Below, one piece after another: positions 2,680 to 44,148 of a DNA stretch of 64,000 nt. Origin of the DNA: Candidatus Campbellbacteria bacterium (GTDB taxonomy: Bacteria; Patescibacteriota; Minisyncoccia; Phycocordibacterales; EsbW-18); the NCBI GenBank assembly GCA_024653945.1, contig JANLIT010000003.1:30097-94096 (forward strand), in the 5' to 3' direction. The position numbers and the translations under genes were made by a program. Under the pieces are notes generated by a model. It saw only the letters and a list, made by a program, of their open reading frames with translations, did not search any database and was not told the origin of the DNA. Every line of letters starts with the position of its first letter. Position 1 is the first letter of the stretch.

Positions 2680-2761
2680 GGATGTTTGGTTTTTTGTTGT
2701 AAAATCAAAACATCTGGAGCACAATAGCCCCAGACGAACCCTACATGAGAAGGGAGGGTAT

Positions 2762-3448
2762 ATGGACTCAAGCGCTGCGCGCGCCCAGTGGCAAGCGACG
2801 CGGGAGTCCAATACTCCCCACGTCGTCAGTCTGTTCTACGAACAGCTCACACAGAAGTTGACGGGTGCAGAACATGCACCGAGCTACGATGAAGGTGACC
2901 TCATCCTCTGGCTTCCCAAGGGGGCAACGTTTGGCCTTGAGGTCAAAGGCGGTAGTTCCAACCACGCCTTCCGCATCGAGGACGAACAACTCGCCCGTCA
3001 TCACGTTCTCGCCGATCGGTATCCGTACGATGGTTTCCTGTACTTTCTGTTCGGCTACACATCGTACGAACCACGCAAGGTGGAGAACGGCGACCGACGT
3101 CGGTGCATGGTACGCAACGCAATCCTCAGAGGCTTTGGACGGAGGTTTCTTATCGAGAGAACTCGTCATCTCTGGATTGTGCCCGTGCAACTCATTGAGA
3201 CGCTACACCAGATGGTGGGAATCGGGGCGTCCGCGTTCCCGACTGGGTCCGGCGTACGCATCCAACGACGCATGCTCCAGACCTTTGCGCATGAGACGCA
3301 GGAGGCGCAGAACAGCTGGAGCGTCCGCAACGGCACGGTAGACATCCTACCACCACGCGGACGGACAAGGCGCATCTCCTTTGGGGTTACTATGTTCTGC
3401 TATAACGGCATGCCTGACATTCCCGTCAGGGGTGCTGTATGGAAGTGA
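2762..3448 (+). CDS. PD-(D/E)xK nuclease-like protein (VRR-NUC-like)
   Basis: Motif GDLILWLPKGATFGLEVKGG (D..E-V-K) fits the PD-ExK/VRR-NUC core. SD aagggagggtatATG. The listed 2648 start overlaps glyQS, so the internal ATG at 2762 with SD is preferred. Confidence 0.5.
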   Translation: MDSSAARAQWQATRESNTPHVVSLFYEQLTQKLTGAEHAPSYDEGDLILWLPKGATFGLEVKGGSSNHAFRIEDEQLARHHVLADRYPYDGFLYFLFGYTSYEPRKVENGDRRRCMVRNAILRGFGRRFLIERTRHLWIVPVQLIETLHQMVGIGASAFPTGSGVRIQRRMLQTFAHETQEAQNSWSVRNGTVDILPPRGRTRRISFGVTMFCYNGMPDIPVRGAVWK

Positions 3449-3450
3449 CC

Positions 3451-3480
3451 GCACCCGCTTGTAAGGGGGTGCGTTTTTGT
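3451..3480 (+). terminator. Rho-independent terminator after nuclease gene
   Basis: gcacccgcttgtaagggggtgc followed by gttttt. Confidence 0.6.
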
Positions 3481-3618
3481 ATTTCGGAAATAATTATTTC
3501 ACAATCTGGTTACAATCTAGTCAATAATTCCTTATGCATAAAGGGCGTATACTCTGAAACAGATGCACCTCACAACACGAATACAACCCGTATCGCACCA
3601 CAACCAAGGAGATGGGAG

Positions 3619-6318
3619 ATGCTCAATAACGCTGATGCACTCACTGTACACAGTGAGGACATCCGCGCCCTTCAGAGCTCCTCACCATCATTCTGGGTGT
3701 GGGCACGAGAGGCGTGGATCAAAGGATACCTTGACATCGTCGTCGAGGCCGTTATCACGACTGGCGTAGCCAATGATGTACCGGGGACGCTCGCATATCT
3801 TCAGGCGATTTACCTAGACCAAGTCGGTGGTTCAAAAAAAGTAGCACTCACCGATTTTGCAGGGAAAAATCCCTGGAACAAGCTCCACGCACGTCTGAGT
3901 ATCGCACTGGGCAAGACAAAACCCGCCACTGAACAAGATCTCACGCTTATGCACGGGATTATTGGTCACGCTGCGCTTCCACGACTATTTTCGAGCCGCT
4001 TATTCAGGGAACGAAATCATCGTGTCCTGCGCGAGGAAATGCGCCAAAGCTTGTTGTCGTTCTCTCCGAAGGAAACCGAGATTGGACAAATGACGTTCGG
4101 TTTCGGCGCTGATGTTCCTGCTACCTACGACGCTGTCGGACGCTTGGAAAGCGGTAAATCCGTTCTTGCACGAACAGCTCTGAAAAGAGCGATGACGTTC
4201 TGGAAGGAACACCGCTTGGCAGTCAATGAAGATAACCGCGCACAGTGGCGCGTGCTCGTTCCAAGACTTCGCGTAATCATGGAACCGATTTTCGGTCACT
4301 ATGTCTCGCGACTCGATCTGCATCCAGCCGCTAATCCCGAGATGACGTTCCTGACGCTCATGAGTTGGGCGAGTACGCTGTACTACTGGAAAGAGAATTA
4401 TCGTCGGGTTCTCTTCTCCGAGATAAATACCGTGCTCTCTACGCACGGTTTTCCCGGAGGAAGAGTTGACGCGGTTGAACTCCGCAGAATTGAAGGGGAA
4501 CGACTGACAAGAAAACAGGGTCTCATTCTCGAGTCCCTCAAGGTTCTCCGAAATCGTTCTGCGGGTGAACTCGTTGGTAGGTTCCAACGACAATTTCCCG
4601 GCGTTCTTGAAATTGCAATTCTCGACTGGAAGTTTGCTGTCGGAGACGCACTGGTTCGAGGAGAAATCATCAAACCAAGTGATATCGCGCGCGAACCGTT
4701 TCCAAAGCATCGCTTTCAAGTTGAGCGGTATCTCGCGCTGGCAATTCTTGACCACAGTCTGCAACATGGCATTCGGTATGACGACGAGGTATGGGCCCAG
4801 TACGGACATCGGCTTACCGCCGATGTTGTGTACTTTCTGCCGGGCACACTGCCAATCGTGCATACCGTTGCTCCGGATACTGCACTGCTCAAAGAAGTCT
4901 TCACGACCAGCACTGCCCAGCCTTGGGATAACGCGCGTGACCGCTCGACAATACGTCTGGCCAATAACGCAATCCTAGGACACCTTCTGGGTCTCATTGA
5001 GGGCGGACACAAAGGTAAACAGAACAAGAATGGCACGTCCGCAACTCTACAGGCAGAACTCTTCGACGGACGCACTGGATACGCATCCGTGACGGACATC
5101 ATTGAGAAGCACAAAAACGGGAAGACGGCCGTCGACGTTCACGGCATCATCTTCAAGACGGCGAACGGCAGTTACGAGATGCACTTTGATCGGTTGGTTG
5201 CTGCGGTCGAGCGAGATGATATCGGAACTCGGAATTTCTCCGCCGAATACGGAGGCAAGGTTTCGTGCATGATGCCAGGTCATGATGATTCTGGTCCATC
5301 CATGCACATCTACCTTGACGGAACCCCGCGATTCTTTTGCTTCGGCTGCGAAGCGCGCGGTATCATCGCTGTCAGCTCACTACCCGATCACTTCGAGATA
5401 TCACCCAGCACATTCCGTCGGCACCATATGCCGATGCAGACGGGGGAAAAGGAGACCAGTCTCGATATCTTGATTCCCGAGCGTTACCATCACCTGTTCA
5501 CCACTCTGCAAGAAAGTCTTGCGAGCGCTTTTCACGGAAGCTCTGCGGAACGGTACGTCGCATACAAGCGCAGAATCGACCCTGATCTTGCGTTCACCTA
5601 TGGCGCCGGTTTCGGTACATCGGCGTTACTCAACGACTTACTCGATGCGAAATGCTCGCTTGAGGAGCTTGCGACAAGTGGTATCATCCGCTTCTCTTCA
5701 GAGGTCAAGCCTGACAGCGTCGTCCCACGGCTCTTGAAACGGCACGGCATGCACATTGAGGAACTGACGCGGACCGTGAAGAAAAAGCCCGCATTGCCGT
5801 ACTGTCTTCTCTTTGACCGTGTTACGTTTCCTCTGACGTTTGAAGGTCGTCTCTCGAACTTCTACGCACGTAGCATATCGCCGAGAGGTCTTCCTCATGT
5901 GAAGCTTTCCACGCACCTCACGCAGGGTGGCTTCAACATGGTTGCTCTTGCTGACCCGAACTCCTCTGAAGTAATTATGACCGAAGGAGCCTTTGACGCG
6001 CTCACCCTCATTTCGATGGGGTTTACGAATGTCTTCTCGCTCATCGGCGTATTCAATGTCCCGTTGTTCGGGAGCATCATGCGTTCCGGCAAAGATCTGG
6101 CAACTGCCTTCGACCGCGATTCAAACGTCTACAAAACAGGGCAGACGAAAACCTTGAAGATTGAGAAAAAACTGCGGGAGTGGGGATTTCCGGGACGTGT
6201 TTGTGACTATACCGAAGCCTTCATTCAGAAGCTTCCTCCTGAGGAACGTCCGTCTGAAGGAGATGGTACAAAGTGGGATTTCAACGGATGGTGGTGCGAC
6301 CCTGCCCGCCGCCGTTAA
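3619..6318 (+). CDS. Large (~900 aa) fusion protein: N-terminal ~550-aa domain of unknown function + C-terminal DnaG-type primase core (CHC2 zinc finger + TOPRIM)
   Basis: CMMPGHDDSGPSMHIYLDGTPRFFCFGCEARG matches the DnaG CHC2 zinc-binding motif. VIMTEGAFDALTL (TOPRIM E) and AFDRDSNV (DxD) lie downstream at primase-like spacing. SD aaggagatgggagATG at 3619. The upstream 60 codons of the track ORF span the terminator. Confidence 0.6.
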   Translation: MLNNADALTVHSEDIRALQSSSPSFWVWAREAWIKGYLDIVVEAVITTGVANDVPGTLAYLQAIYLDQVGGSKKVALTDFAGKNPWNKLHARLSIALGKTKPATEQDLTLMHGIIGHAALPRLFSSRLFRERNHRVLREEMRQSLLSFSPKETEIGQMTFGFGADVPATYDAVGRLESGKSVLARTALKRAMTFWKEHRLAVNEDNRAQWRVLVPRLRVIMEPIFGHYVSRLDLHPAANPEMTFLTLMSWASTLYYWKENYRRVLFSEINTVLSTHGFPGGRVDAVELRRIEGERLTRKQGLILESLKVLRNRSAGELVGRFQRQFPGVLEIAILDWKFAVGDALVRGEIIKPSDIAREPFPKHRFQVERYLALAILDHSLQHGIRYDDEVWAQYGHRLTADVVYFLPGTLPIVHTVAPDTALLKEVFTTSTAQPWDNARDRSTIRLANNAILGHLLGLIEGGHKGKQNKNGTSATLQAELFDGRTGYASVTDIIEKHKNGKTAVDVHGIIFKTANGSYEMHFDRLVAAVERDDIGTRNFSAEYGGKVSCMMPGHDDSGPSMHIYLDGTPRFFCFGCEARGIIAVSSLPDHFEISPSTFRRHHMPMQTGEKETSLDILIPERYHHLFTTLQESLASAFHGSSAERYVAYKRRIDPDLAFTYGAGFGTSALLNDLLDAKCSLEELATSGIIRFSSEVKPDSVVPRLLKRHGMHIEELTRTVKKKPALPYCLLFDRVTFPLTFEGRLSNFYARSISPRGLPHVKLSTHLTQGGFNMVALADPNSSEVIMTEGAFDALTLISMGFTNVFSLIGVFNVPLFGSIMRSGKDLATAFDRDSNVYKTGQTKTLKIEKKLREWGFPGRVCDYTEAFIQKLPPEERPSEGDGTKWDFNGWWCDPARRR

Positions 6319-6371
6319 TGCGCACCGCTCAAACGGTCGTAAGAAGAACTGTTCCTTTGAAATTTGTGAAT

Positions 6372-6399
6372 TGCCCGGCATGCGCTGGGCAGTTTTTTT
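6372..6399 (+). terminator. Rho-independent terminator after primase-fusion gene
   Basis: ttgcccggcatgcgctgggcag followed by ttttttt. Confidence 0.55.
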
Positions 6400-6430
6400 A
6401 ACCTGCGTTTTCTGTTAAAGTATAGGGGTA

Positions 6431-7408
6431 ATGAAAAGCACCGGTAAAAAAATCGCACTTTCAGGCGTGAAGCCAACAGGCCGACCACACATCGGAAATT
6501 ATTTTGGTGCAATGAAGCAGTTTGTTGAACTGCAGGAAACACACGAGAATTATATTTTTGTTGCCAACTACCACGCGCTCATTGGTGTACAAAACGCGAA
6601 GACGCTTGCACAAGACACACGCGACGTGATTATTGATTATTTGGCAATCGGCATTGACCCAGATACAACAACACTCTTTTTGCAGTCAGATATTCCAGAA
6701 GTGACAGAACTTGCATGGATTTTTAACACACTCGTCACCGTTCCATACTTGCAACGAGCTCACGCATATAAAGATGCCATTGCAAAAGGAAAGGAGGCAA
6801 CCGTGGGACTTTTTGATTATCCCGTGTTGATGGCGGCGGATATTTTGCTTCCGAATGCGGATGTGGTGCCCGTTGGTGCAGACCAGAAACAGCATGTGGA
6901 GTATGCTCGAGACATTGCACAAAAATTTAATCTTGCGTTTGGCGATACCTTCACGGTTCCTGAACCTCTCATTTTGAAAGATGTTGCGATTATTCTCGGC
7001 ACCGACGGACAAAAAATGAGCAAGAGTTACAACAATACCATTCCATTGTTTGCGACACGTGATGAAATTACGAAGGCGGTGATGAGTATTCCAACCGATT
7101 CTGCTGGAGTTGCTGACCCCAAAGATCCTGAAAAAGATTTTGTATTCCAATTCCACAAACTATTCGCAGGAGATAAACTCGCAGAGATTCGCGCTGGCTA
7201 CGAAAAAGGTGGGCTCGCGTATTCAGAATCAAAGAAAATGCTCATTGAAGAAATAGATGCGTTTTGTGCGCCTCTCCGAGAAAAACGCGCGAAGATTGCC
7301 GGCGATACAAAAATGGTTGACCGTGTCATTGCCGAGGGTAGAGACAAAATCCGTCCACACGCACAGGAATTGATGAAAAAAGTTCGCGAGAAAGTGGGGA
7401 TTGTATGA
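6431..7408 (+). CDS. trpS: Tryptophanyl-tRNA synthetase
   Basis: 325 aa. N-terminal GVKPTGRPHIGNYFG (HIGH-type), KMSKS present, and size typical of TrpRS. Confidence 0.9.
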   Translation: MKSTGKKIALSGVKPTGRPHIGNYFGAMKQFVELQETHENYIFVANYHALIGVQNAKTLAQDTRDVIIDYLAIGIDPDTTTLFLQSDIPEVTELAWIFNTLVTVPYLQRAHAYKDAIAKGKEATVGLFDYPVLMAADILLPNADVVPVGADQKQHVEYARDIAQKFNLAFGDTFTVPEPLILKDVAIILGTDGQKMSKSYNNTIPLFATRDEITKAVMSIPTDSAGVADPKDPEKDFVFQFHKLFAGDKLAEIRAGYEKGGLAYSESKKMLIEEIDAFCAPLREKRAKIAGDTKMVDRVIAEGRDKIRPHAQELMKKVREKVGIV

Positions 7409-7503
7409 AGTGTGCAAAAAAAAGATATTGACATACCGTATTCTTCATTTATAATACAGATAGAAAGGTTCAACCGACACACAATCAATTGAGGAGACTG
7501 GCG

Positions 7504-7728
7504 ATGAACAGCATTCCGAAGGACAAGAGTTACCCAAGTGATTCCGTGCAGTGCGGTGGTTGTCGTGGACGTGGGTGCAAGGAGTGCGAACAGCGGGGAT
7601 GGTTCACGCCAGCATCTCATCCAAGGGGGCAACGTTGTTGGCTGGGAACGTGCGAGAAGCCCCTCCCCCCAAACCACATTGCAGTCTACTGTTCCAACCA
7701 GTGCGCCCAAGACGACGCCACGGACTGA
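7504..7728 (+). CDS. Small Cys-rich (zinc-ribbon-like) protein, GC-rich cassette
   Basis: 74 aa. CGGCRGRGCKECEQRG ... CWLGTC ... CSNQC. SD gaggag 7 nt upstream. Terminator follows. Confidence 0.35.
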   Translation: MNSIPKDKSYPSDSVQCGGCRGRGCKECEQRGWFTPASHPRGQRCWLGTCEKPLPPNHIAVYCSNQCAQDDATD

Positions 7729-7756
7729 TGTTCTCGTCGCTCGCTTTCCGCCCTAG

Positions 7757-7790
7757 GAGCCGCTGCTCTTCGGGCGGCTCTTTTGTTTTT
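7757..7790 (+). terminator. Rho-independent terminator
   Basis: gagccgctgctcttcgggcggctc followed by ttttgttttt. Confidence 0.7.
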
Positions 7791-7865
7791 GGAGTTGCAT
7801 TTTTGGTTACCATTTCGTACACTCATATGTGGACGCGCAATCCAGCGCGACGAAAGGAGCACGGT

Positions 7866-7982
7866 ATGAGTAAGCCCCGGCAGGGTCGCAACCGTCACTG
7901 CAAGCGCTTGAGCCGCATGTTCAACCTCAAGAACGGCTGGCCCATGCATCGGCGGGTGATCCTCCGGCTTCGGGCCGCGTAG
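7866..7982 (+). CDS. Very small basic Arg-rich peptide (38 aa), GC-rich cassette
   Basis: SD aaaggagcacggtATG. MSKPRQGRNRHCKRLSRMFNLKNGWPMHRRVILRLRAA. Own terminator downstream. Confidence 0.3.
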   Translation: MSKPRQGRNRHCKRLSRMFNLKNGWPMHRRVILRLRAA

Positions 7983-8011
7983 ACCCGAGCATCCTTCTCT
8001 CAACCACCACC

Positions 8012-8041
8012 GGGCGCCCCACAAGGGCGCCCTTTATCTTT
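8012..8041 (+). terminator. Rho-independent terminator
   Basis: gggcgccccacaagggcgccc followed by tttatcttt. Confidence 0.6.
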
Positions 8042-12992: not shown

Positions 12993-14105
12993 ATGCAGCG
13001 CGGTATTGACAAACCTTTTCTTTTTATCACAAGCATTCTTGTTGTTGCGGGAATGTTTATTTTTATTTCTGCATCAATTGGACTTCTTGCTCGAGCAGAG
13101 AATCTTAATGTTTCTGGACAGATTATTAACCAACTTCTGTCTCTAGGAATTGGTCTTGCCCTTGCACTTCTTGTGTTCCGATTTCCTGTTACTTTTTGGC
13201 ACACCTACTCATTTTATATTTTGTTGGCAGGACTTGCCGCAACACTATTAGTACTCATACCGGGCTTTGGACCCGAACACGGAGGCGCGCGCCGCTGGAT
13301 TGAGATTGGCTCCGTATCACTTCAACCGGCCGAGTTTTTGAAATTTGCGTTCATACTTTATTTTGCCGCCTGGTGTACCGGCGTTCGAAAACGCATACAC
13401 ACATTTACCTATGGCCCGCTTGCACTGCTCCTTCTTCTTGTGCCTGTTGGGTTTGTCCTCTGGTTACAGCCCGACTACGGTTCAATCACCATTATTGGCG
13501 CTACGGGAATGTGCATGTTGATATTTGCGGGAGCACGTTGGAAACATATTATTTCGCTTTCTTTGATTGGTGGTGTGTGTGCACTACTGGTCGTACTTTT
13601 TGTTCCCTACATACAAGACCGAGTGGACACCTTTTTGCATCCGGGAAAAGATCCACTTGCCTCTGGGTATCAAATTAAACAATCACTTATTGCTATTGGC
13701 TCTGGTCAAATAACTGGACGTGGGTTTGGACAAAGCACTCAGAAATTTAATTTTCTTCCTGAACCAATGGGAGATTCGGTATTTGCTGTTTTTGCTGAAG
13801 AGTGGGGATTTGTTGGTGGCATTGTTCTCATCGGTTTATTTATTGCCTTTTTAAACTTCGGTTATCGCATTGCTCTGCGCGCTGAAACGGCCTTTTCTCG
13901 TCTCGTGGTATTAGGTTTCGTTACCGCAATCGTAACGCAATCTTTCATTAATATGGGGTCTATGCTTGGCGTATTTCCACTCACAGGAGACCCTCTTGTT
14001 TTTGTGAGTAAGGGCGGAACATCACTTGTTTTTACCCTCATTGAAATCGGTATTATTTTGGCAATATCAAAACACACAAAAGAGCCGGGTACTGCAAAAA
14101 CCTAG
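12993..14105 (+). CDS. ftsW: SEDS family lipid II flippase/polymerase FtsW/RodA
   Basis: QPAEFLKFAFILYFAAW, PDYGS, GSGQITGRGFGQSTQKFNFLPEPMGDSVFAVFAEEWGFVGG. Start set at the internal ATG (12993) to avoid overlap with mraY. Confidence 0.85.
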   Translation: MQRGIDKPFLFITSILVVAGMFIFISASIGLLARAENLNVSGQIINQLLSLGIGLALALLVFRFPVTFWHTYSFYILLAGLAATLLVLIPGFGPEHGGARRWIEIGSVSLQPAEFLKFAFILYFAAWCTGVRKRIHTFTYGPLALLLLLVPVGFVLWLQPDYGSITIIGATGMCMLIFAGARWKHIISLSLIGGVCALLVVLFVPYIQDRVDTFLHPGKDPLASGYQIKQSLIAIGSGQITGRGFGQSTQKFNFLPEPMGDSVFAVFAEEWGFVGGIVLIGLFIAFLNFGYRIALRAETAFSRLVVLGFVTAIVTQSFINMGSMLGVFPLTGDPLVFVSKGGTSLVFTLIEIGIILAISKHTKEPGTAKT

Positions 14106-14175
14106 TAACGAAAGGGGGTATTTCTGATATACTTATGGAGTACTGTTCGCTGTATACGAGCAGTGTAATACTTTT

Positions 14176-17958: not shown

Positions 17959-17982
17959 TTAAACGTGTTATAAAGGTTATAT

Positions 17983-18291: not shown

Positions 18292-18412
18292 AAGTATGAG
18301 GAGAGGTTTTTGTCTTTGTCCGTATGTTCTAGGTATATAGGTCGGAAAAGATATATTGTGCGACACATATCTTCTCAGAAACTGGACCCTTAAAGGGCTA
18401 CCCCACTAGGGA

Positions 18413-19646: not shown

Positions 19647-19768
19647 ATGCCACCAAGCATACTATAAAATATGCTCATTGAATATCTTGACGCGCGCATG
19701 TTATTGATAAACAATGCGGGCAGAAGTACCTAGCGCGTACAAACTCATTTGAAAGGGGTGATGCCGGT

Positions 19769-20035
19769 ATGAGCCAGAAACCCAACATAGCAAGCCTTTT
19801 TCTCATCCAAAAGCATGAGCGCCGATTTATTTCGGAACTCGGCCCGGTTGGTGAGGAAAAGCTTCTCTGCCAGGTTCTGGTAATTGAAAGTGACGGTGTC
19901 AGCGAGGTTCGCTTCCCTTCCACGGGGGAAAAGATCGCTCCATTTGACCTCAAGGGACGAACTGTTGAAGAGGCCGCAAGAGAACTACTTCAGGACGAGG
20001 AGAGAACGTATGGTGGGGCAAAGAAGGCAGGCTGA
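19769..20035 (+). CDS. Hypothetical 88-aa protein (GC-rich cassette)
   Basis: SD gaaaggggtgatgccggtATG. Higher GC than flanks. Hairpin + T-run downstream (20056-20105). Confidence 0.3.
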   Translation: MSQKPNIASLFLIQKHERRFISELGPVGEEKLLCQVLVIESDGVSEVRFPSTGEKIAPFDLKGRTVEEAARELLQDEERTYGGAKKAG

Positions 20036-20112
20036 GTACCAACTGCGCGCTATGGGTTTCAAGCCGGCCTTTTTGTCGGAAGACAAGAAGATACCGGCTT
20101 TTTTATTCTCAA

Positions 20113-21315
20113 TTATTTTGTATTCAAAATCTGCACCGCTGAATCCATTTGCGGGTCTTTGTCTGCCTGAGCATCTTCAGCAGTCATAGTAACAAGAACA
20201 TCTGGTGTAAGTCCGCCCTGAGAAATAGATTTACCATTTGGTGTTGTCCATTCTCCGACGGTCAGCTTCAGTGACCCGCCCCCGGCAATTGGAATAAGCT
20301 CCTGAACAGACCCTTTTCCAAATGTTTTCTGTCCCACAAGCTTTGCGATACCGTGTTCTTGGAATGCACCCGCAAGAATTTCAGACGCTGATGCTGAACC
20401 GCCATCAACAAGCACGACCATATCAAATGTATTTTTCAAGAGACTGTGACCTGTACTTCTATATGCGTCCTCTCCCTTTCCTTGATCAAATCGTTCTCTA
20501 ACAACGACAGTACCCTCCGGTAAAAAGTAACTTGCAATATCTATTGATGCGTCAAGAAATCCTCCAGGGTTGCCACGCATATCAAGAATAAGTTTGGTAC
20601 TTTTTGATGCAACAAATGTTTCAAGTGCTTCACGAACTTTTTCGGGCGACTTAGCATCAAAGTTATACAAAGAAATAACAAAAATACCATCAGAACGAAG
20701 TACTGTATCAAGTGTTGGTATAGAAATATTTTCGCGTGTAACGGTAACAATTAAAAACTCGTCAACTCCTTCACGGGCGAGTGTTAACACAACATTCGTG
20801 CCAATCTCCCCGCGAATGAGTCTAACCACAGCATCTACCGATAACTCCATTGCAGAAGCCCCGTCTACCTCAATAATATTGTCTCCTGCACGAATACCAG
20901 CACGCTCAGCGGGTGACCCTTTTAGCGGTGCAATAACAGTAATGGCACCCTCCTTCTCCCCCACCTCCATTCCAACACCTCCAAAACTTCCAAGAATCAT
21001 ATCCTCAAACATTTTTGCATCCTCTGGTGGAAAAAACATACTGTGTGGGTCACCGAGGGAGTCAACGAGACCACCAATTGCTCCCCATACTTTTTCTTGT
21101 GCGACTGTTGTTGAAGCGGAAAAATATTTATCATTGACGAGATTCCATACGGACCAAAATTGGTCAAAATCAGCAACCAACGCTTCTGGTGCTTGTGTGT
21201 TTGTAACATCCGTCACCCGTGTGCTTGGTAAAACACTATCACGCCCGACATAAAAACCGACTCCTAAAAGAGCCAGCGCACACAAAAAGATGGCAATCTT
21301 GTGAACACGAATCAT
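20113..21315 (-). CDS. ctpA: Carboxyl-terminal processing protease (S41 family)
   Basis: N-terminal TM, PDZ-like segment, GNPGGFL and VVLVDGGSASASEILAGAFQ S41 core. Confidence 0.85.
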   Translation of the reverse strand: MIRVHKIAIFLCALALLGVGFYVGRDSVLPSTRVTDVTNTQAPEALVADFDQFWSVWNLVNDKYFSASTTVAQEKVWGAIGGLVDSLGDPHSMFFPPEDAKMFEDMILGSFGGVGMEVGEKEGAITVIAPLKGSPAERAGIRAGDNIIEVDGASAMELSVDAVVRLIRGEIGTNVVLTLAREGVDEFLIVTVTRENISIPTLDTVLRSDGIFVISLYNFDAKSPEKVREALETFVASKSTKLILDMRGNPGGFLDASIDIASYFLPEGTVVVRERFDQGKGEDAYRSTGHSLLKNTFDMVVLVDGGSASASEILAGAFQEHGIAKLVGQKTFGKGSVQELIPIAGGGSLKLTVGEWTTPNGKSISQGGLTPDVLVTMTAEDAQADKDPQMDSAVQILNTK

Positions 21316-23662: not shown

Positions 23663-23960
23663 GTAAAAGAAAATAAATGAAAAAGGAGAAGGGTTCCCGT
23701 AGGTTACCACTCCTCCCCACCTGGCGCCGTTAGGGCGCAAAGGTGTTGTTGGCGGCGCACCGTGACAGTTCCCTAGTGGAACCGCCCGGTGCCGCCGCGC
23801 CGGCGATCAGGCCGAAGCGATGCTCAGATAGTCGTGCGAATAAAGCGACGAGTACATCAGGCGCATGTCTTCTCCTCGTTCTTGCTTCGGGTCCATTCCC
23901 TCAGCAAGTCCAAGAGTATTATACTCCCCCATCTGGAGTTGTCAAGCCCTCCAAAACCCT

Positions 23961-24013
23961 TTGTTTTTCAAAAGAAAACCGCCTAATGAAAGCTCGGCTT
24001 TCTTAGGCGGTGT
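23961..24013. terminator. Hairpin terminator (U-tract on minus side) downstream of GC-rich gene 24037..24525; near-identical in sequence to the terminator at 27216..27268
   Basis: aaaACCGCCTAAtgaaagctcggctttcTTAGGCGGTg, with minus-strand run ttttcttttg. Confidence 0.65.
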
Positions 24014-24036
24014 TGAGGCGCACCGCCTCCTTCTGT

Positions 24037-24525
24037 CTACCCTGTCGGAGTTACGGTAAGTTTCGCCGCGACCTCCGTGGGTTTGTTGATGAGGTGGCTC
24101 ATGTTGGAGCCGGAGTAGAAGGGGCGGTGTTGATTCCTCCGCATCCACCTGGAGAGCTCGTAACACCGTTCCACCATGTCCTTGATGACCATCTCCCGAG
24201 AAGGGATGGTTGGCGGTACCCAGTTCTCCATCTTCTCCTTCCACCAGCGAACAAATGCGTTGTAGTTCGAATGCGCCAGGACGGCTTCAACATGCCGTTG
24301 CTGGTAAACCTTGACGATTTCCACGGCGGCCTGGCGAAAGATGGTGACGATCTCGTCGACACTCAGTATCTTCCACTCCTGCCCACCCCAGATGGGAACG
24401 TTGTGAAAGAAGCCGTTGAAGCGATCGATGACAGGGCGCAGCTGAACCAGTCCGTCGAAATCCACTTCTTCCACTTGGACGACGACGGGTCCCTGCTCGA
24501 TTTTTTTGTATCCGACATGCAACAT
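24037..24525 (-). CDS. Hypothetical 162-aa protein, GC-rich cassette
   Basis: SD gggaggtgtgccATG. Terminator downstream on the same strand. The opposite-strand ORF 24010..24585 has a composition typical of antisense. Confidence 0.45.
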   Translation of the reverse strand: MLHVGYKKIEQGPVVVQVEEVDFDGLVQLRPVIDRFNGFFHNVPIWGGQEWKILSVDEIVTIFRQAAVEIVKVYQQRHVEAVLAHSNYNAFVRWWKEKMENWVPPTIPSREMVIKDMVERCYELSRWMRRNQHRPFYSGSNMSHLINKPTEVAAKLTVTPTG

Positions 24526-24551
24526 GGCACACCTCCCTTGCTGGTAAGTAA

Positions 24552-24594
24552 TGCGTTGTTTCAGAAAATTTCTTCAACGCCCTGAAACAACGCA
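24552..24594. promoter_or_regulatory. 13-bp perfect inverted repeat TGCGTTGTTTCAG-n17-CTGAAACAACGCA upstream of cassette gene 24037..24525
   Basis: Direct reading. No U-tract, so it is not a terminator; possibly an operator or a 5' leader structure. Confidence 0.35.
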
Positions 24595-24755
24595 TCACGA
24601 GCATCTGAGGCACGTTATACTACATATATATCATAGTTGTCAATCCCCATTCTACCGCCTACTTTCTACCAGCTACAAGCTACTTCTTTGTCCCCAGAAT
24701 ACGCACTCGTACTCCCCTTTTTTGTTCGAATGGGTCATTTCTCTCGTGTGCTACT

Positions 24756-29310: not shown

Positions 29311-29495
29311 AGATGTGTAGTATACATGCTCTGGGGGCGATTACAAGTATGTAAAACAACATTTTGTAATCCAAACGGTTTAATATATATAAAATTTTTT
29401 AACCATATCAAACCATTGACTTTTTTTGTTTTTGCTGTACCATCGCACACAGACACAGATGTTCCTATCAACCCGTCTTCAAAAAGGAGAACGTC

Positions 29496-29993
29496 ATGAC
29501 GGTAGTCGGCGTGATTGTGTACTGTTTCATCGGGTTGGTCCTCGCAGTCCCCTACTGTCTTTTGGCAGGATGGAGCCCTGAGAGTCTCCCCGCCGTAGCA
29601 ACCTTCGGGCCAGCATTTCTGCTCATCTGGCTCCTGTTCGGAGTAACCTCAGGAGTCGTGGTGCCAAACAGCAATCGAAAGTGGTTGCCTGTTCGATTTC
29701 ATTGGCGTGGTTCCCGAAGTAAGTCAACCGCCCCCAGAAGCGTGTTCTGGATATGGACCGCCTACGGCCTCCTTCCCATCTTAGTGCACTGGAGTTCGAT
29801 GCTTCTCGGAAAAATGGGCTACAGCGAGATTGCTTTACTGCTCAATGCCAATCGCTACATGAGCATCGTCTACGTTTTTCTTGGTGGTCTCGTGGTAGCT
29901 TGTCTGCTCATAGTTGCCTTCGGGGTTTGGGAGGGGTTGAAAAACGCCCGGACGTGGGTGCTACACCATGTGCCGTGGCGAGTTAGTCACTAG
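29496..29993 (+). CDS. Hypothetical membrane protein, GC-rich cassette
   Basis: SD aaaaggagaacgtcATG. 165 aa with 4 hydrophobic helices. GC-rich. Confidence 0.45.
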   Translation: MTVVGVIVYCFIGLVLAVPYCLLAGWSPESLPAVATFGPAFLLIWLLFGVTSGVVVPNSNRKWLPVRFHWRGSRSKSTAPRSVFWIWTAYGLLPILVHWSSMLLGKMGYSEIALLLNANRYMSIVYVFLGGLVVACLLIVAFGVWEGLKNARTWVLHHVPWRVSH

Positions 29994-30079
29994 GAACCGG
30001 TTCTCGTCGAGTCCTTCACGAAAGGAGTTTTACACAAACTCTATCGTGTGGGACTCTTTTCGTATCCCCGTGTTCGTTG

Positions 30080-30095
30080 CAAGTATCGATACTTG
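30080..30095. promoter_or_regulatory. 16-bp perfect palindrome CAAGTATCGATACTTG between convergent cassette genes
   Basis: Direct reading. Confidence 0.3.
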
Positions 30096-30136
30096 TGCCA
30101 GATGAGCAATGCCACTATTTTATCTCAAGTCAGACC

Positions 30137-30171
30137 AACAAAAAAACATCCCCAGAACACTGTTCTGGGGG
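30137..30171 (-). terminator. Rho-independent terminator for 30195..30602
   Basis: CCCCAGAACA/TGTTCTGGGG stem, with a minus-strand run of seven T then G. Confidence 0.6.
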
Positions 30172-30194
30172 TACTACCGGGGTTCGTCTTGTGT

Positions 30195-30602
30195 CTATTT
30201 ACAAACGGACAACAGCCTGAATGCGCTGGGATTCACCGTAACGGGAGGAGGGGGTGGTTCCTCCGCGGCGTTGATGAAGACCCTGTTCTCATCGGCGAAG
30301 AACCGTAGAAGTCTCTTCCAGTCCGATGGGGGTCCAGTCACAAGGAAGAGCTTCCAGAGAACATTCCTGTTGCCCACGTCGCTGAAGACGATGTCCCCGA
30401 GATACCGGTGCACGCCATCTTCGCACTCGTACCAGAAGTATGCTCCGTTCAACCCCTCCGGCTTCACCGAGCCGACAAGCAGGTTCTTGCCGATGCGCAT
30501 CAGCGAGGCCATCTTAATGGCGGTCTCACTCACATCAACACGAACGTGTTCGCCACTGACCAGTCGGACGGTCTTCACTTGGGCTTTCCTACCTTTTTTC
30601 AT
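30195..30602 (-). CDS. Hypothetical 135-aa protein, GC-rich cassette
   Basis: SD aggaaggaacagaccATG. PPPPP tract. Terminator downstream. Confidence 0.4.
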   Translation of the reverse strand: MKKGRKAQVKTVRLVSGEHVRVDVSETAIKMASLMRIGKNLLVGSVKPEGLNGAYFWYECEDGVHRYLGDIVFSDVGNRNVLWKLFLVTGPPSDWKRLLRFFADENRVFINAAEEPPPPPVTVNPSAFRLLSVCK

Positions 30603-30690
30603 GGTCTGTTCCTTCCTGAAAAGGCTGACGGGACTCGTCTGCCTGTTTGTTTTCTATTTTTGATTATGCACTTTTCTATTTAAAAGTCAA

Positions 30691-31017
30691 TTACTTGGAG
30701 TTCAGTGTGTCTATTTTTGACGCAAGGATAAAGTCGTTCACGGACAAACCGTCGACAGCGTGCGTCCAGAGCGAGAGCTCAACAACATTATAGAAAATAG
30801 AAATGTCTGGGTGATGGCCTTCTTTTTCTGCAATAGGCATAATCGCATTTACAAAAGCAACCGATTCAGGAAATGTTTTGAACTGAAACTTTTTGTAAAG
30901 CCGTCCCTCTTTCAACGACCATGTTGGAACAAGAAGAAGATTTTTTGCAATTCCCTCCTCACTCATGGGTGGCATACCACCTTCACACGGCACACAGTGT
31001 TGTTGTGATAGTTCCAT
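30691..31017 (-). CDS. phhB: Pterin-4a-carbinolamine dehydratase (PCD/DCoH)
   Basis: FKTFPESVAFVNAIMPIAEKEGHHPDISIFYNVVELSLWTHAVDGLSVNDFILA is the PCD signature around HHPD. Start set at MELSQQ. Confidence 0.75.
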   Translation of the reverse strand: MELSQQHCVPCEGGMPPMSEEGIAKNLLLVPTWSLKEGRLYKKFQFKTFPESVAFVNAIMPIAEKEGHHPDISIFYNVVELSLWTHAVDGLSVNDFILASKIDTLNSK

Positions 31018-32016: not shown

Positions 32017-32268
32017 CACTTTGGTTCGATTCCTGTGGGGTGCGTGTGTCTATACTACCGCAGATTATGCTTGTTTTGAAGGCATTTTATGGTATTATTT
32101 TCTTCGTTGTGGGCCTTGTATCTTCGATTACTCGATACGGGCCCTCAGCAGACCACATAAACGTTCGAATTTCCATCCTCTGCGGTTCGGTCAAAAATGA
32201 AAGCAAGCTTTCCTTTTTGTCCTCGCCTCGACGACTTCATTCTCGCGTTTGCGTGCCATCCTTTTTTT

Positions 32269-32344
32269 GGGCCCGTAGTTCATCTGGTAGAACGCCTCAT
32301 TTGCAATGAGGAGGTAAGCGGTTCGAGTCCGCTCGGGTCCACCA
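32269..32344 (+). tRNA. tRNA-Ala (anticodon UGC), CCA encoded
   Basis: GGGCCCGTAGTTCATCTGGTAGAACGCCTCATTTGCAATGAGGAGGTAAGCGGTTCGAGTCCGCTCGGGTCCACCA gives a canonical cloverleaf with G3:U70. Confidence 0.85.
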
Positions 32345-33852: not shown

Positions 33853-33865
33853 ACATGAACATTTT

Positions 33866-33898
33866 TGAAAAAGAAAAGCGGCGCCTTATCGTAGCGCC
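33866..33898 (-). terminator. Minus-strand hairpin terminator ending an ORF-poor GC-rich transcript unit (just upstream of ddl)
   Basis: GGCGCCttatcgtaGCGCC, with minus run cttttctttttc. Confidence 0.45.
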
Positions 33899-34152
33899 GT
33901 TTTCCGAGTACTGAGACGTCCTCGCGAGCTTTCCGTGGGGCACGGTTCAGCTGGGTTGGATGTTCTCGGAACAGTACGCGACCTTCAGATTCTTTTGAGT
34001 GGAGAATCGGAAAAGGTCGAAGAAAAGAACCGGAGATCGATAAGGCTCATGTCTTTAGCCCCATCAGACGTTCGCGCCCACGGCCCGGTCGATCAGCTGG
34101 CCAGTAGATTGCAGGGCGTTTGAACCTGCCTGTAGTATACCACAAAAAATAA

Positions 34153-34185
34153 GACAAAAAGAAAACCCCGGATTACGCTCCGGGG
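34153..34185 (-). terminator. Minus-strand hairpin terminator inside the ORF-poor GC-rich segment
   Basis: CCCCGGAttacgcTCCGGGG, with minus run ttttctttttgtc. Confidence 0.5.
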
Positions 34186-34514
34186 GTCGAGTGGTAACTT
34201 TTTTTCGCATGTTCGTGTGAACGACATGCGGTGCTGGGCTCGAGGCGTTCCCTACCTGAAATCGGTGCAATCTCGCCCAACCATCTACTCACACTCTGTG
34301 CGCCATTTTTTCTTTCCCTAAGAGGAAAATCGGGTTGGAACCCAAAAGCGCTTTGAGACGCCCCTTTCAAGGTATTTTGAGCGTCTCGGACGGGCGCAAC
34401 GAAAGCGGCTTCTCTGCTTGATACACAGGAAGGTCCGGAGGGGTCATCCAAAAAGTGACCCACCAACCCGCCTGAACGTGCGCCCGTGGACCTTATAGTA
34501 CTTATCCTAGTATT

Positions 34515-39399: not shown

Positions 39400-39495
39400 T
39401 TGATTTCACAAAATCACGTCGCGCAAGTGATTCTGCGGAATTATGTCGCGTACCGTCCACTAAGACGCGACCTTGAGGCGCGACGTATTCTTCAT
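39400..39495 (-). repeat. Start-codon-abutting repeat element, copy C (long form)
   Basis: The reverse complement reads tacgtcgcgcctcaaggtcgcgtcttagtggacggtacgcgacataattccgcagaatcacttgcgcgacgtgattttgtgaaatcaaATG. The second hairpin is TGATTT/AAATCA, a compensatory change relative to CGATTT/AAATCG. Confidence 0.75.
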
Positions 39496-39764: not shown

Positions 39765-39810
39765 TGGGAAAAGAAAAAGGCGCAGACTAGGATTTCTCCC
39801 AGAGTGCGCC
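39765..39810 (-). terminator. Rho-independent terminator for 39833..40360
   Basis: GGCGCAgactaggatttctcccagagTGCGCC, with minus run tttttcttttccc. Confidence 0.55.
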
Positions 39811-39832
39811 TCACTAACACCAACCGGCGACC

Positions 39833-40360
39833 TTACTTCGTGGCAGCCTTGCGCCCCCGCTTGGAGGAGTCGATGACAGTCTTGCCCCGCACGACGCTCA
39901 CTCGCGTGAGCCGTTTCTGGGTCTCGCCGTCCTTCAGGATTGCCTTCGCCTCGGCTGAGGTGAAGAGCAAGAGGCTCGTGCTGTCGGGAGGGATGATCTT
40001 GACGGCAGGAGCGTCCCCCACGAAGCTGCCGGTGGCCACCTTGACCTCGGTCGACTTCGACTTCTCGGGCTGCTTCTCGTTGTCCTCGATAGCAACAACC
40101 TGAAGGATGGCGGCGATCATGGCCTTGTCACCCTTGATGAGGTTGTAGTCGACGAGGTTCTTGTCCTCGCTCTTCGGCTTCGCGTTGAAGTTGCGGAGAA
40201 CCGTCTCCGCATCATGGAAGCGTGCTTTGGCTTCCGTGAAGTTCGCCGTGGGGAACTTCACCTCGTACTCGGCGAGTCGGCCCTCCAGCACGTTCAGGCG
40301 AGAGACGAGGATGTCGCGGACCGAAATCTGAATCGACTGCTTCTGAAGCTTGGTGTTCAT
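39833..40360 (-). CDS. Hypothetical 175-aa protein, GC-rich cassette
   Basis: SD gggagaaagaaccATG. GC-rich. Own terminator. Confidence 0.45.
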   Translation of the reverse strand: MNTKLQKQSIQISVRDILVSRLNVLEGRLAEYEVKFPTANFTEAKARFHDAETVLRNFNAKPKSEDKNLVDYNLIKGDKAMIAAILQVVAIEDNEKQPEKSKSTEVKVATGSFVGDAPAVKIIPPDSTSLLLFTSAEAKAILKDGETQKRLTRVSVVRGKTVIDSSKRGRKAATK

Positions 40361-40654
40361 GGTTCTTTCTCCCTTGCGACCTTGGTCGCGGTTGGTTGAT
40401 TTGTTCTACTGCAGAATTTTACGCACCGTTCATAAAATTCTTATAAAGTGCCCAAAATTCCGAAGTAGAACCTCTTTTAAAGATCGTACGTGTACAGTAT
40501 ATCATATACATTGTATTTGTCAACCCCATTAGAGATTTCCCTTTAAACAAGCTAAAAAACCTAATAATATAAAGGTACTTTTGACACTGGCAAATGTAAC
40601 AAATCTATACAAACTCTAACGGGGTCAGGCACCCCTCCTTATACCCTTTTAACA

Positions 40655-40906: not shown

Positions 40907-40917
40907 TAAACAAACTT

Positions 40918-40959
40918 TTTTCCATTATAAAACGCGTACGCGTTTTATAATGGAAAAAT
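40918..40959. promoter_or_regulatory. 42-bp perfect palindrome (20-bp arms TTTTTCCATTATAAAACGCG-ta-CGCGTTTTATAATGGAAAAA); candidate bidirectional terminator or protein-binding site
   Basis: Direct reading. Flanked by T/A runs on both sides. Confidence 0.6.
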
Positions 40960-41064
40960 CAGAATCTCCTTTGCGTTTGACGTAAGAGAAATAGTTTGGT
41001 ATATTCCACACAGTTTTGTACTGTGATTGCCTACTTGTGGGTGCCACATCAGAGGAGGTTTGCG

Positions 41065-41418
41065 ATGGCAAAGAAGCGACGTTTTGCAACGCAGGACCAG
41101 CGTACGAGGGGGGAGATGTTGAATGACCTCTCCCGACAAGGGGAAGAGCTTCGAGATCTTACCAAGGAGAGGGACGAACTTCTCGGCGAGAGACACGTCC
41201 TTCGCCAGGCGAGAGCTGACCTCTTCTTGAACTTTGGGACCGCCAAGCTGGATGTCGCCAGTCTCTCGGAAGAGAAGGCGCACCTTCTGGCGAGAGTCGA
41301 GAACCTCCTAGGGAACGCCGAGGAGATGAGGAAGAGGCACGACGGAGAAAACGAGCGCCATCAGGCCTTCGTCGACGGACTTTCTCTGGCACTCAGAGTC
41401 GTCACCGGCAAGGTGTGA
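41065..41418 (+). CDS. Hypothetical 117-aa charged coiled-coil protein, GC-rich cassette
   Basis: SD agaggaggtttgcgATG. GC-rich. Terminator downstream. Confidence 0.4.
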   Translation: MAKKRRFATQDQRTRGEMLNDLSRQGEELRDLTKERDELLGERHVLRQARADLFLNFGTAKLDVASLSEEKAHLLARVENLLGNAEEMRKRHDGENERHQAFVDGLSLALRVVTGKV

Positions 41419-41454
41419 GTCCTCGTTCGGATGAACAACCTCTCGGGAGTAAGA

Positions 41455-41502
41455 GCGGGACGACCATTCAATTGGTCCTCCCGCTTTGTTTTTTATTTTT
41501 TC
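41455..41502. terminator. Rho-independent terminator (serves cassette gene; T-run overlaps uvrB stop)
   Basis: GCGGGACGACCattcaattGGTCCTCCCGC, then tttgttttttattttttc. Confidence 0.65.
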
Positions 41503-43617: not shown

Positions 43618-43654
43618 AAAAACAAAACCCGCTTCGGTCAAACCAAAAGCGGGG
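43618..43654 (-). terminator. Rho-independent terminator for 43699..44148
   Basis: CCCGCTTcggtcaaaccaaAAGCGGG, with minus run ttttgttttt. Confidence 0.55.
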
Positions 43655-43659
43655 TCTTT

Positions 43660-43690
43660 GCATCGCGTCGGAATTGAACCGACGCGATGC
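43660..43690. promoter_or_regulatory. 12-bp-arm perfect palindrome GCATCGCGTCGG-aattgaa-CCGACGCGATGC (shares CGCGTCG/CGACGCG core with the repeat family)
   Basis: Direct reading. Confidence 0.4.
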
Positions 43691-43698
43691 GCTGCAGT

Positions 43699-44148
43699 CT
43701 AGAGCATGGCGAGCCGAAGTCGTCGCTCATGCCAGTAGATGCTCGTGAGCCACAGGCCGAGGAGAGCTGTGCCGATGATTGCTGGCCAGAGGAGCCCGAG
43801 ATTCAGAGTCAGAAAAATCGCACCAGCCACCAGTAAATCTGCCACGAGAACGAAACGGAAACGAATCCGCGGGTTGTCGGCGGCGACGATGGCTATGTGG
43901 AGGACGACGAGAAAGGCCATAACGATGGCAAAACTAACAATGGCAAAACTGATGACCCTTGAACCTTCGGGGGGCGAACTGAAAAGATACGCCACTGTCA
44001 CAAAGGCAATCATCCCGATCGCCCACCAAAGCACGAACTTCAGTTGGCTGTTCAGCATCTTTTTTCTCACTTTCTCCGCAGTGCGGATAAACTGCATATT
44101 TAATTTACGATTGGACACAGTCCAATCAAGATCATTCCGCACGCACAA
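43699..44148 (-). CDS. Hypothetical membrane protein, GC-rich cassette
   Basis: 3-4 hydrophobic helices. Internal 15-bp tandem (caatggcaaaact x2) encodes ISFAIVSFAIV. True start is uncertain (MQF or MLNSQ). Confidence 0.4.
   Translation of the reverse strand: MCVRNDLDWTVSNRKLNMQFIRTAEKVRKKMLNSQLKFVLWWAIGMIAFVTVAYLFSSPPEGSRVISFAIVSFAIVMAFLVVLHIAIVAADNPRIRFRFVLVADLLVAGAIFLTLNLGLLWPAIIGTALLGLWLTSIYWHERRLRLAML

Follow-up and report, generated by a model that had tools for sequence, protein, structure and literature searches.

The window analysed here is a stretch of 64,000 nucleotides (64 kb) of contig JANLIT010000003.1, from a Candidatus Campbellbacteria bacterium of the Candidate Phyla Radiation (CPR)/Parcubacteria lineage. 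Scattered between its housekeeping genes are ten inserts rich in guanine and cytosine (GC) which carry twelve open reading frames (ORFs), and these are the subject of this study. Composition, use of the Shine-Dalgarno (SD) sequence and promoters split these cassettes cleanly from the core genes, and the cassette unit is a complete transcription unit in which a single small ORF is preceded by a promoter, a leader and a strong SD and, for most units, followed by a terminator of its own. The explanation that we hold, on balance and with some reserve, to be probable is that these units are moron-like accessory expression cassettes which occupy reusable slots, are drawn from a CPR-wide pool and are exchanged by recombination.

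Composition and signals set twelve ORFs apart

Profile scans of the window proteins revealed that the large genes are housekeeping genes, namely those of aminoacyl-tRNA synthetases, scpA, mraY, ftsW, murG, an S41 peptidase, corA, dnaB, recR, ddl, uvrABC, enolase, PPDK and typA. A preliminary description of the sequence had listed nine segments as GC-richer than their flanks, and all nine are indeed elevated (0.49–0.605 in 400-nt windows, against a window mean of 0.449), segment 19760–20110 being only mildly GC-rich at 0.49–0.52. A tenth GC-rich insert, without a convincing ORF, was found at 33853–34514. The cassette set comprises 12 ORFs in ten inserts, which amount to approximately 10.4 kb or 16% of the window and all lie before 44.2 kb.

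When the 12 cassette ORFs were compared with 50 core ORFs of the window, the median GC content was 0.553 for the former and 0.434 for the latter with complete separation of the two groups (Mann-Whitney U=600 of a possible 600, p=9e-8), while the median GC at third codon positions (GC3) was 0.66 versus 0.355 (p=1e-7); the windowed GC and GC3 check proposed in the preliminary description accordingly did not return a uniform composition. A strong SD, defined as a predicted pairing with the anti-SD of -6 kcal/mol or stronger, precedes 11 of the 12 cassette ORFs but only two of the 50 core ORFs (Fisher p=1.8e-9), which confirms the earlier observation that native genes are largely SD-less.

A window scan for TTGACA-N16-18-TATAAT with at most one mismatch identified seven near-consensus sigma-70 promoters against an expectation of 2.1 from shuffles, and five of the seven are located directly upstream of cassettes (at 7428 on the plus strand and at 23945, 24643, 27821 and 40523 on the minus strand). 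A recognisable promoter of its own was found for about ten of the 12 cassettes, none being clear for 1a and 2b, and most units are followed by a hairpin and T-run terminator, cassette 6a (29496–29993) having no terminator of its own. The cassette leaders span 40–130 nt and several of them form strong hairpins which leave the SD unpaired (folding z=-3.9 to -6.4), that of cassette 4 reaching -31.4 kcal/mol (z=-4.0). The claim that every cassette possesses both a strong SD and a dedicated terminator consequently stands for most units, the SD of cassette 9 and the terminator of cassette 6a being the exceptions. The features of the inserts are as follows.

2681..6430, plus strand: cassette 1, a 3.75-kb insert between a class II aminoacyl-tRNA synthetase gene (1357–2679) and trpS
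2762–3448, plus strand: cassette 1, ORF of 228 aa (1a), with terminator 3450–3481
3619–6318, plus strand: cassette 1, DnaG-type primase-like ORF of 899 aa, with terminator 6372–6399
2681–2701 and 6400–6433, plus strand: edges of cassette 1, the former a relic of the old trpS 5' end and the latter the new trpS start region
7428..7788, plus strand: cassette 2a, with promoter TTGACA-N16-TATAAT (7428–7455), SD and terminator (7757–7788)
7504–7728, plus strand: cassette 2a ORF, a 74-aa Cys-rich peptide with a CxxCxGxG motif
7850..8040, plus strand: cassette 2b, with SD and terminator (8012–8040)
7866–7982, plus strand: cassette 2b ORF, a 38-aa very basic peptide (GC 0.64, GC3 0.87)
19670..20134, plus strand: cassette 3, an insert of 465 bp flanked by rplI (L9) and the S41 peptidase gene
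19769–20035, plus strand: cassette 3 ORF of 88 aa, preceded by an SD and followed by a hairpin and T-run near 20073–20107
23665..24036, minus strand: small GC-rich unit with promoter TTGACA-N16-TATAAT (23945–23918), SD and GC-rich hairpins
23867–23808, minus strand: ORF of the small unit, 19 aa, MRLMYSSLYSHDYLSIASA, followed by the GC-rich hairpins
23970–24036, minus strand: tandem-hairpin terminator module, which is also the terminator of cassette 4
24037..24650, minus strand: cassette 4, with promoter (24643–24614), 19-bp hairpin in the 5' untranslated region (UTR; ~24598–24553) and SD
24525–24037, minus strand: cassette 4 ORF of 162 aa
27207..27830, minus strand: cassette 5, with promoter TTGACA-N17-TATAAT (27821–27793), structured leader and AGGAGG SD
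27707–27279, minus strand: cassette 5 ORF of 142 aa, with a long hairpin terminator ('L repeat') at 27207–27267
27813–27904: recR promoter and 5' region ('R repeat'), which the -35 box of cassette 5 adjoins
29349..30709: cassettes 6a and 6b, both in an insert of 1.36 kb flanked by rplU (L21) and a pterin-4a dehydratase gene
29496–29993, plus strand: cassette 6a, a 165-aa membrane protein
30602–30195, minus strand: cassette 6b, an ORF of 135 aa with promoter TTGACT-N17-CATAAT and terminator 30172–30140
33853..34514, minus strand: GC-rich insert of 662 bp without a convincing ORF, with two apparent transcription units
34150–34128, minus strand: approximate position of an extended -10 promoter in this insert, the terminators of which are at 34187–34156 and 33900–33866
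39765..40530, minus strand: cassette 7, with promoter (40523–40496), a leader of ~130 nt with a long hairpin (z=-6.0) and SD
40360–39833, minus strand: cassette 7 ORF, a 175-aa Lys-rich protein (GC3 0.85), with terminator 39812–39769
40960..41493, plus strand: cassette 8, with promoter TTGACG...TATATT (~40977–41006) and AGGAGG SD
41065–41418, plus strand: cassette 8 ORF, a 117-aa coiled-coil protein, the terminator of which (41454–41493) abuts the uvrB stop codon
43631..44170, minus strand: cassette 9, with promoter TTGACA-N17-TATTGT (44170–44142) and terminator 43655–43631
44097–43699, minus strand: cassette 9 ORF, a membrane protein of ~132 aa without an SD
43690–43658, minus strand: tRNA-like minihelix between the ORF and the terminator of cassette 9

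Some of these elements deserve separate mention. The 19-aa unit (23808–23945, minus strand) is conserved in the relative L004 and may represent a leader peptide or a small regulatory unit, while the insert at 33853–34514 may encode non-coding RNAs or very small proteins; neither this insert nor any cassette leader has a match in Rfam. The left edge of cassette 8 is marked by a perfect 42-nt AT-rich palindrome (40917–40958), which directly follows the 3' end of a conserved small membrane-protein gene and is probably a bidirectional terminator. The minihelix of cassette 9 (43658–43690, minus strand) has a 7-bp acceptor-like stem stacked on a T-arm with GGTTCAATTCC in its loop region, no full tRNA being present, and it could be either a relic of an att site or an element for 3' processing or stabilisation.

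Insertion sites that are empty in relatives

Relatives, designated by L numbers, were reached through 90%-identity clusters of TrpRS, RecR and UvrA, and one of them lies on CP064977.1, a contig of 811 kb. They display roughly 73–84% nucleotide identity to the window in core genes, the order of which is conserved. For every insert that could be checked, one or more relatives lack it and have the flanking core genes side by side.

Cassette 1: empty in L001 and L002, where the two synthetase genes are 1–3 nt apart
Cassette 3: empty in L005, L006 and L007, with a gap of ~75–80 nt
Cassette 4: empty in L003, with 47 nt unaligned and a cysS-dnaB gap of 120 nt
Cassettes 6a and 6b: empty in L003, with a gap of 38–51 nt
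Insert 33853–34514: empty in L003 and L051, with ddl-uvrC gaps of 12 and 78 nt
Cassettes 7, 8 and 9: empty in L051, with gaps of ~20, 42 and 9 nt, the last from the NDH2 gene to uvrB

The synteny check against relatives therefore demonstrates that the checkable inserts are strain-variable, and together with the signals described above these empty sites bear out the preliminary view of moron-like, self-contained and compositionally foreign units between core genes. At the empty sites examined (L003 between cysS and dnaB; L005 and L007 between the L9 and S41 peptidase genes), the cassette signals have left no trace that could be recognised.

Two cassettes are present at the same site in relatives. 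The 142-aa protein shares 43% aa identity with its counterpart in L005, and the 74-aa peptide shares 71% nt and 62% aa identity with its homologue in L001 (6006–6227), in contrast to RecR and TrpRS, which cluster at 90% or more with the copies of relatives. As judged by these alignments, the two cassettes are much more diverged than the core genes and appear to evolve fast.

Different ORFs within conserved signals in relatives

The same slots hold other unannotated genes in L003–L007, mostly with a GC content of 0.49–0.65 and a GC3 of up to 0.95 (the latter in L007), and many of these possess an AGGAGG-type SD, which the core genes there do not. Across 34 pooled loci an SD was found for 20 of 29 high-GC3 genes versus 80 of 667 others using a crude gene caller, a signal to which hardly any loci but the window and those of its close relatives contribute, since high-GC3 genes are absent from most of the distant loci, those of distant Paceibacterota mostly having none near recR.

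The clearest case of conserved signals is the slot between cysS and dnaB, where the tandem-hairpin terminator (23970–24036) is kept in L007 (92.5%) and L004, and the promoter with its 5'UTR hairpin (24526–24650) is likewise kept in L007 (~78%) and L004, the promoter being recognisable also in L055. Between these signals the ORFs are unrelated, with 162 aa in the window and 276 aa, with a weak match to a receiver domain, in L007; the resemblance breaks off at the stop codon on one side and close to the SD on the other, such that the variable part is ORF-precise. SD-like microhomology flanking each ORF was considered as a driver of such swaps and was dropped, as it follows the stop codon in cassette 4 only.

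The slot between dnaB and recR holds at least three cassettes in L003, all on the minus strand, and a module of ~190 bp bounds each of them. This module combines the promoter of recR with roughly the first 45 nt of that gene, a linker and a long hairpin terminator, and its copies are 88–100% identical. Extra copies of the recR 5' end are found in L004 and L005. L055 harbours an array upstream of dnaB in which a repeated terminator-promoter-UTR module separates different SD-ORF units, and the terminator family AAGAAAACCGCCTrATGAAAGCkCGG is common to the cysS|dnaB and dnaB|recR slots. In the window itself, trpS has been clipped by cassette 1, leaving the relic of the old start at 2681–2701, and its new N-terminus derives from the right edge of the insert. 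The suggestion of cassette shuffling in the preliminary description is supported by these conserved signals and arrays in relatives, although neither boundary repeats nor arrays occur within the window.

In L003 (8071–8424) and L004 (8169–8520) a second recR promoter drives a 108-aa low-GC gene, the stop codon of which overlaps (ATGA) with a fragment of the 5' end of recR; this suggests an ancestral operon of this gene and recR that was later split by insertion.

Homologues of the cassette proteins

Scans of the cassette proteins against Pfam, NCBIfam, PHROGs, PADLOC and PDB sequences yielded the primase region of the 899-aa protein as their sole match, and the cassette proteins of relatives are equally without matches in family and structure library scans, apart from the weak receiver domain in L007. 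The DnaG-type region of the 899-aa protein covers aa 546–859 (phrog_47, 2.5e-16); TIGR01391 (3.7e-7) falls far below its cutoff and Toprim_2 scores 21.8 bits against a cutoff of 22.1 bits. Such primases are defined by a zinc-binding motif, an RNA-polymerase core and a Toprim domain, and on these matches the protein was classed as DnaG-type. Its N-terminal ~540 aa have no match in the family libraries. A single homologue (30% identity) was found; it has a Mu Gam-like gene as its neighbour and belongs to an island that is SD-led and GC-richer, and its genome looks CPR-like since the neighbouring core genes are SD-less. No tblastn match to the 899-aa protein was obtained in phage or plasmid collections. 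Among viral contigs the primase alignment matched a generic zinc-finger motif alone and the 142-aa family matched nothing, while a metagenome contig scan returned two short contigs only.

The 228-aa protein encoded in the same cassette went unmatched in Pfam, NCBIfam, PHROGs and PADLOC as well as in PDB sequences; a D...EVK motif noted by eye is the sole hint of a PD-(D/E)xK nuclease, and its AlphaFold model has a predicted local distance difference test (pLDDT) score of 30. Thus, in the cassette that had been described as encoding a nuclease and a primase-like protein, the primase part is upheld by the DnaG-type region and the nuclease part is not, the 228-aa protein being unmatched in any search. 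The single-sequence AlphaFold model of the 162-aa protein has a pLDDT of 52.

The 175-aa protein (GC3 0.85) matched only itself among 5.8 billion protein clusters. In contrast to the earlier assertion that the cassette proteins are ORFans, which is also weakened for the 74-aa and 899-aa proteins, an exhaustive HMMER search assigned the 142-aa protein to a family of 113 representatives. Source names were carried by two of ten members looked up, Yanofskybacteria and Vogelbacteria, both of which belong to the CPR. In these genomes the gene stands alone in different slots (TGT|uvrB and relA|parB) and possesses a consensus promoter, a leader of 65–90 nt, a strong SD and a terminator with no excess of GC, which argues that the gene brings its architecture along, whether it has an excess of GC being determined by the genome that receives it.

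Homology searches for donors covered three cassette proteins, those of 175, 899 and 142 aa, and among these there was no support for capture from a GC-rich host such as Actinobacteria, as had been proposed. In codon usage the cassettes come closer to GC-richer CPR relatives than to the core genes of the window itself (-1.69 versus -1.91 bits per codon), a result of little weight since any GC-rich model would fit cassette codons better. Horizontal gene transfer (HGT) in Patescibacteria has been reported to come mostly from other Patescibacteria (PMC12455944). We infer that the cassettes were drawn from a gene pool common to Paceibacterota/Parcubacteria and their mobile elements.

Two layouts of gene start

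In several of the SD-less core genes, those of recR, rplU, trpS and the S41 peptidase, a -10-like box lies 5–9 nt ahead of the ATG, a layout that suggests leaderless mRNAs or mRNAs with very short leaders. The ribosomal-protein genes are low in GC and without an SD. Among cassettes, the SD is kept in both orthologous pairs examined, namely the 142-aa gene of the window and L005 and the 74-aa gene of the window and L001, and also in distant members of the 142-aa family in L083 and L084; from this retention it may be argued, indirectly, that the cassette SD sites are functional. The 16S rRNA 3' end, sought as a check on the anti-SD, occurred in none of the 88 sequences examined. If this lineage were without the anti-SD motif, the retention of strong SDs in orthologous cassettes would need a new explanation, and the matter bears on whether SD-dependent translation operates in those Parcubacteria that may have lost the motif.

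Proposed exchange of cassettes and alternative explanations

In the explanation that we favour, the occupied sites or slots would recur across Campbellbacteria while their cargo turns over, as the relatives show in part. ORFs would be swapped between conserved promoter/UTR and terminator modules, units could build up as tandem arrays, and some insertions would leave the core gene downstream with a clipped or duplicated 5' end, as at trpS in the window and recR in relatives. The high GC content seen here may stem from arrival out of GC-richer CPR lineages or elements. For exchange, DNA would be taken up and would recombine, homologously or in the Campbell manner, at the modules held in common and at the core flanks, with no cassette-borne integrase, and Campbell-type single crossovers would duplicate the target. 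As no recombinase was found and the window has no boundary repeats, this mechanism is one that we infer. The cargo probably consists of strain-specific, fast-evolving and highly expressed small proteins for interactions with hosts, phages or competitors, a role that we put forward tentatively.

Several observations weigh against this explanation. The evidence for swapping and arrays derives from relatives only, and no repeated boundary module, flanking repeat or array was found within the window; nor was a recombinase found among the scanned proteins of its 64 kb, or an att site or transfer function, in agreement with the earlier statement that no integrase is visible. CPR relatives of other lineages are tied to two cassettes only (the 142-aa and primase-like proteins), the sole homologue of the 74-aa peptide is that of L001, a close relative, and of the nine other ORFs only the 175-aa one was searched, matching just itself, so that donors outside the CPR are conceivable for most of these. 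Orthologous cassettes hold their high GC despite large divergence (0.517 versus 0.525 and 0.58 versus 0.60), which a simple recent import followed by decay towards the composition of the host does not explain. With regard to gene starts, TANNNT was found 4–10 nt upstream of the start in only 11 of 50 core genes versus one of 12 cassettes (p=0.43), and an anti-SD motif was detected in only 48% of Parcubacteria 16S rRNAs (Tsurumaki et al., PMC9297842). Furthermore, L005 carries at 13480–20600, by tRNA-Pro and tRNA-Ala genes, a prophage-like element which is absent from the window and encodes a 542-aa serine recombinase, GP3_package and SocA_Panacea, a terminase-like gene being among its genes; this element is low in GC and SD-less, so the cassettes are not simply how mobile DNA of this lineage looks.

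A bolder form of the proposal, which we regard as unlikely though deserving of mention, is that these units represent a previously undescribed, integrase-free cassette exchange in which portable promoter/5'UTR and terminator modules beside SD-less core-gene starts serve as landing pads and SD-ORF cargo, common to CPR lineages, is swapped and stacked into arrays. If true, organisms that translate their core genes without SD sites would possess a second class of expression that depends on them. In the searchable literature, neither morons nor leaderless genes nor GC-rich cassettes were found to be described for the CPR.

Direct capture from a GC-rich, SD-using host or neighbour outside the CPR, through competence uptake and spacer integration with later trimming to the expressed gene, appears doubtful to us. 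Such a donor would account for GC3 values of up to 0.85 in the window and 0.95 in L007 and for SD-led units of sigma-70 type, which are typical of ordinary bacteria, the core genes having neither feature, and it should be borne in mind that homologue searches covered three of the 12 ORFs and that the 175-aa protein matched nothing else. Yet this most GC-skewed protein is without a homologue in 5.8 billion clusters, the primase-like protein is unmatched in phage and plasmid collections and has its single homologue in a genome that looks CPR-like, and both named members of the 142-aa family are CPR, where the gene shows no excess of GC. Moreover, Campbellbacteria share promoter and terminator modules around different ORFs, implying exchange within the lineage.

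We attach a similarly low probability to an integron-like site-specific system, in which a recombinase encoded elsewhere in the genome would insert SD-ORF-hairpin units at defined sites beside the starts of core genes and excise them again, and the conserved hairpin modules would act like attC. The failure to find an integrase in the 64 kb, the possession of own promoters by the cassettes, which is unlike integron cassettes, and the lack of GTTRRRY-type core sites by eye all argue against it, as do the dissimilar terminators and the absence of a boundary repeat in the window. Tandem arrays of an ORF and a repeated hairpin module in relatives, the ORF-precise variable segment from SD to stop codon, the same terminator module family in two slots, and the duplicated target at recR and clipped 5' end of trpS would fit such a system, although homologous or unequal recombination could equally give module copies.

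It is less probable still that the cassettes are native, vertically inherited and fast-evolving genes in which GC and SD are kept by selection, for example for very high expression or mRNA stability, and that their absences reflect loss. Orthologous cassettes do have a similarly high GC in diverged genomes, the SD is kept in both pairs and in two distant members of the 142-aa family, and the structured 5'UTRs and consensus promoters suggest tuning of expression. Nevertheless, the same slot holds unrelated ORFs, the examined empty sites bear no recognisable relic of cassette signals, one family occupies different slots in different CPR classes, and the ribosomal-protein genes, which are presumably highly expressed, are low in GC and SD-less.

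Finally, the source being a metagenome-assembled genome in which misassembly can yield compositional mosaics, an assembly or binning chimera with reads of a GC-richer organism was considered and is highly improbable, given that some ten separate inserts are all intergenic and mostly filled by a complete promoter-to-terminator unit, that the same architecture occurs in independent assemblies including CP064977.1, and that two cassettes have same-site orthologues in other assemblies.

The moron-like cassettes are of interest since accessory-gene variation in the tiny, streamlined genomes of CPR/Patescibacteria is poorly understood, and here it is confined, 16% of the window being strain-variable unannotated cargo in reusable slots between core genes. 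Two expression layouts would coexist in one genome, an SD-less and probably little-leadered one for the core and one with consensus promoters, structured leaders and SDs for the accessory genes, and the ORFs swapped under conserved signals point to a simple recombination route for cargo exchange. If confirmed, the cassettes would offer a practical way to pick the genes by which uncultured epibionts are likely to interact with hosts, phages or competitors, and could serve CPR genetics as a source of natural expression modules and of places for insertion.

Additional features of the window

The palindrome CGATTT(TGTG)AAATCG ends 1–3 nt before the ATG of six core genes including uvrA (252–265, 31334–31347, 39402–39415, 51112–51125, 57714–57727 and 62632–62645), six occurrences being observed against 0.22 expected. 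It lies within a repeated upstream element of 35–85 bp, which is also present in L003, L004 and L051 and may be a shared operator or start-site element of a regulon.

The DEAD-box helicase gene (58239–59759) has a GC-rich N-terminal extension of ~187 aa (region 59400–59906) and, unlike other core genes, a near-consensus promoter (59906–59878) and a leader of ~120 nt. The GC content of dnaB (24756–26180) is 0.507, above that of other core genes, and as several relatives have values of 0.46–0.505 this elevation is a property of the gene and not of a cassette. The NDH2-type oxidoreductase gene (44170–45483), which is partly GC-elevated (0.53), gave no blastn alignment to its L051 counterpart, the genes on either side being 77–83% identical, and may be a replaced allele. 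The only Rfam matches in the window are two tRNA genes (31946–32344), neither of which is beside a cassette.

Resemblance to morons, integrons and genomic islets

Phage morons are reportedly the extra genes in lambdoid and other phages as defined by Hendrix, Juhala and colleagues. The cassettes resemble them in that one ORF has its own sigma-70 promoter and mostly its own intrinsic terminator (6a being an exception for the latter, 1a and 2b for the former), in that the unit is located between genes that are adjacent in relatives (the sites being empty in L001, L002, L003, L005, L007 and L051), and in that the base composition is unlike that of neighbours and the function is usually unknown. 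They differ in that they belong to a cellular chromosome, where their neighbours are genes for synthetases and the cell wall (mur) as well as dnaB, recR and uvrABC, and scans of the window found no phage structural or integrase genes, a phage-type primase being present in cassette 1 only. Further differences are that the host core genes here use an SD-less start layout and that slots are re-used with conserved promoter and terminator modules, relatives having tandem arrays.

Integron arrays share with the cassettes small, mostly unannotated single-ORF units with strain-variable content at a fixed chromosomal site, and the tandem arrays of relatives, in which a repeated hairpin-forming element follows each ORF, add to this likeness. 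With respect to attC, hairpins follow the ORFs and one family is recurrent in relatives; no RYYYAAC/GTTRRRY ends were seen by eye, no attC model search having been made. In contrast to integrons, no intI or attI was found among the scanned window proteins and sequence, and about ten of the 12 cassettes have a promoter of their own where integron cassettes are promoterless and driven by Pc. The window holds single or paired units only, with tandem arrays just in L003 and L055, and there are many separate single-cassette sites rather than one platform; promoters, and even the start of the core gene next door, moreover form part of the repeated modules. A canonical integron was rejected on the grounds that no intI was found among the scanned window proteins, that the cassettes have their own promoters and that no array exists in the window. 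Integrative islands or elements differ likewise, as the cassettes have no integrase and no flanking direct repeats and tRNA genes are not beside them.

In marine bacteria, flexible genomic islets or replacement islands are exchanged by homologous recombination in conserved flanks. Like these, the cassettes present variable cargo at conserved positions in a syntenic core, with exchange mainly within the lineage; HGT or genomic islands have been reported in Patescibacteria, up to ~13% of a genome being attributed to HGT (PMC12455944), as compared with the 16% of the window that the cassettes occupy. Unlike flexible islets, they are single transcription units of 0.35–1.4 kb which are leadered and SD-dependent, in a manner different from the core, and for one slot or more the ORF alone has been replaced, the expression signals around it being conserved.

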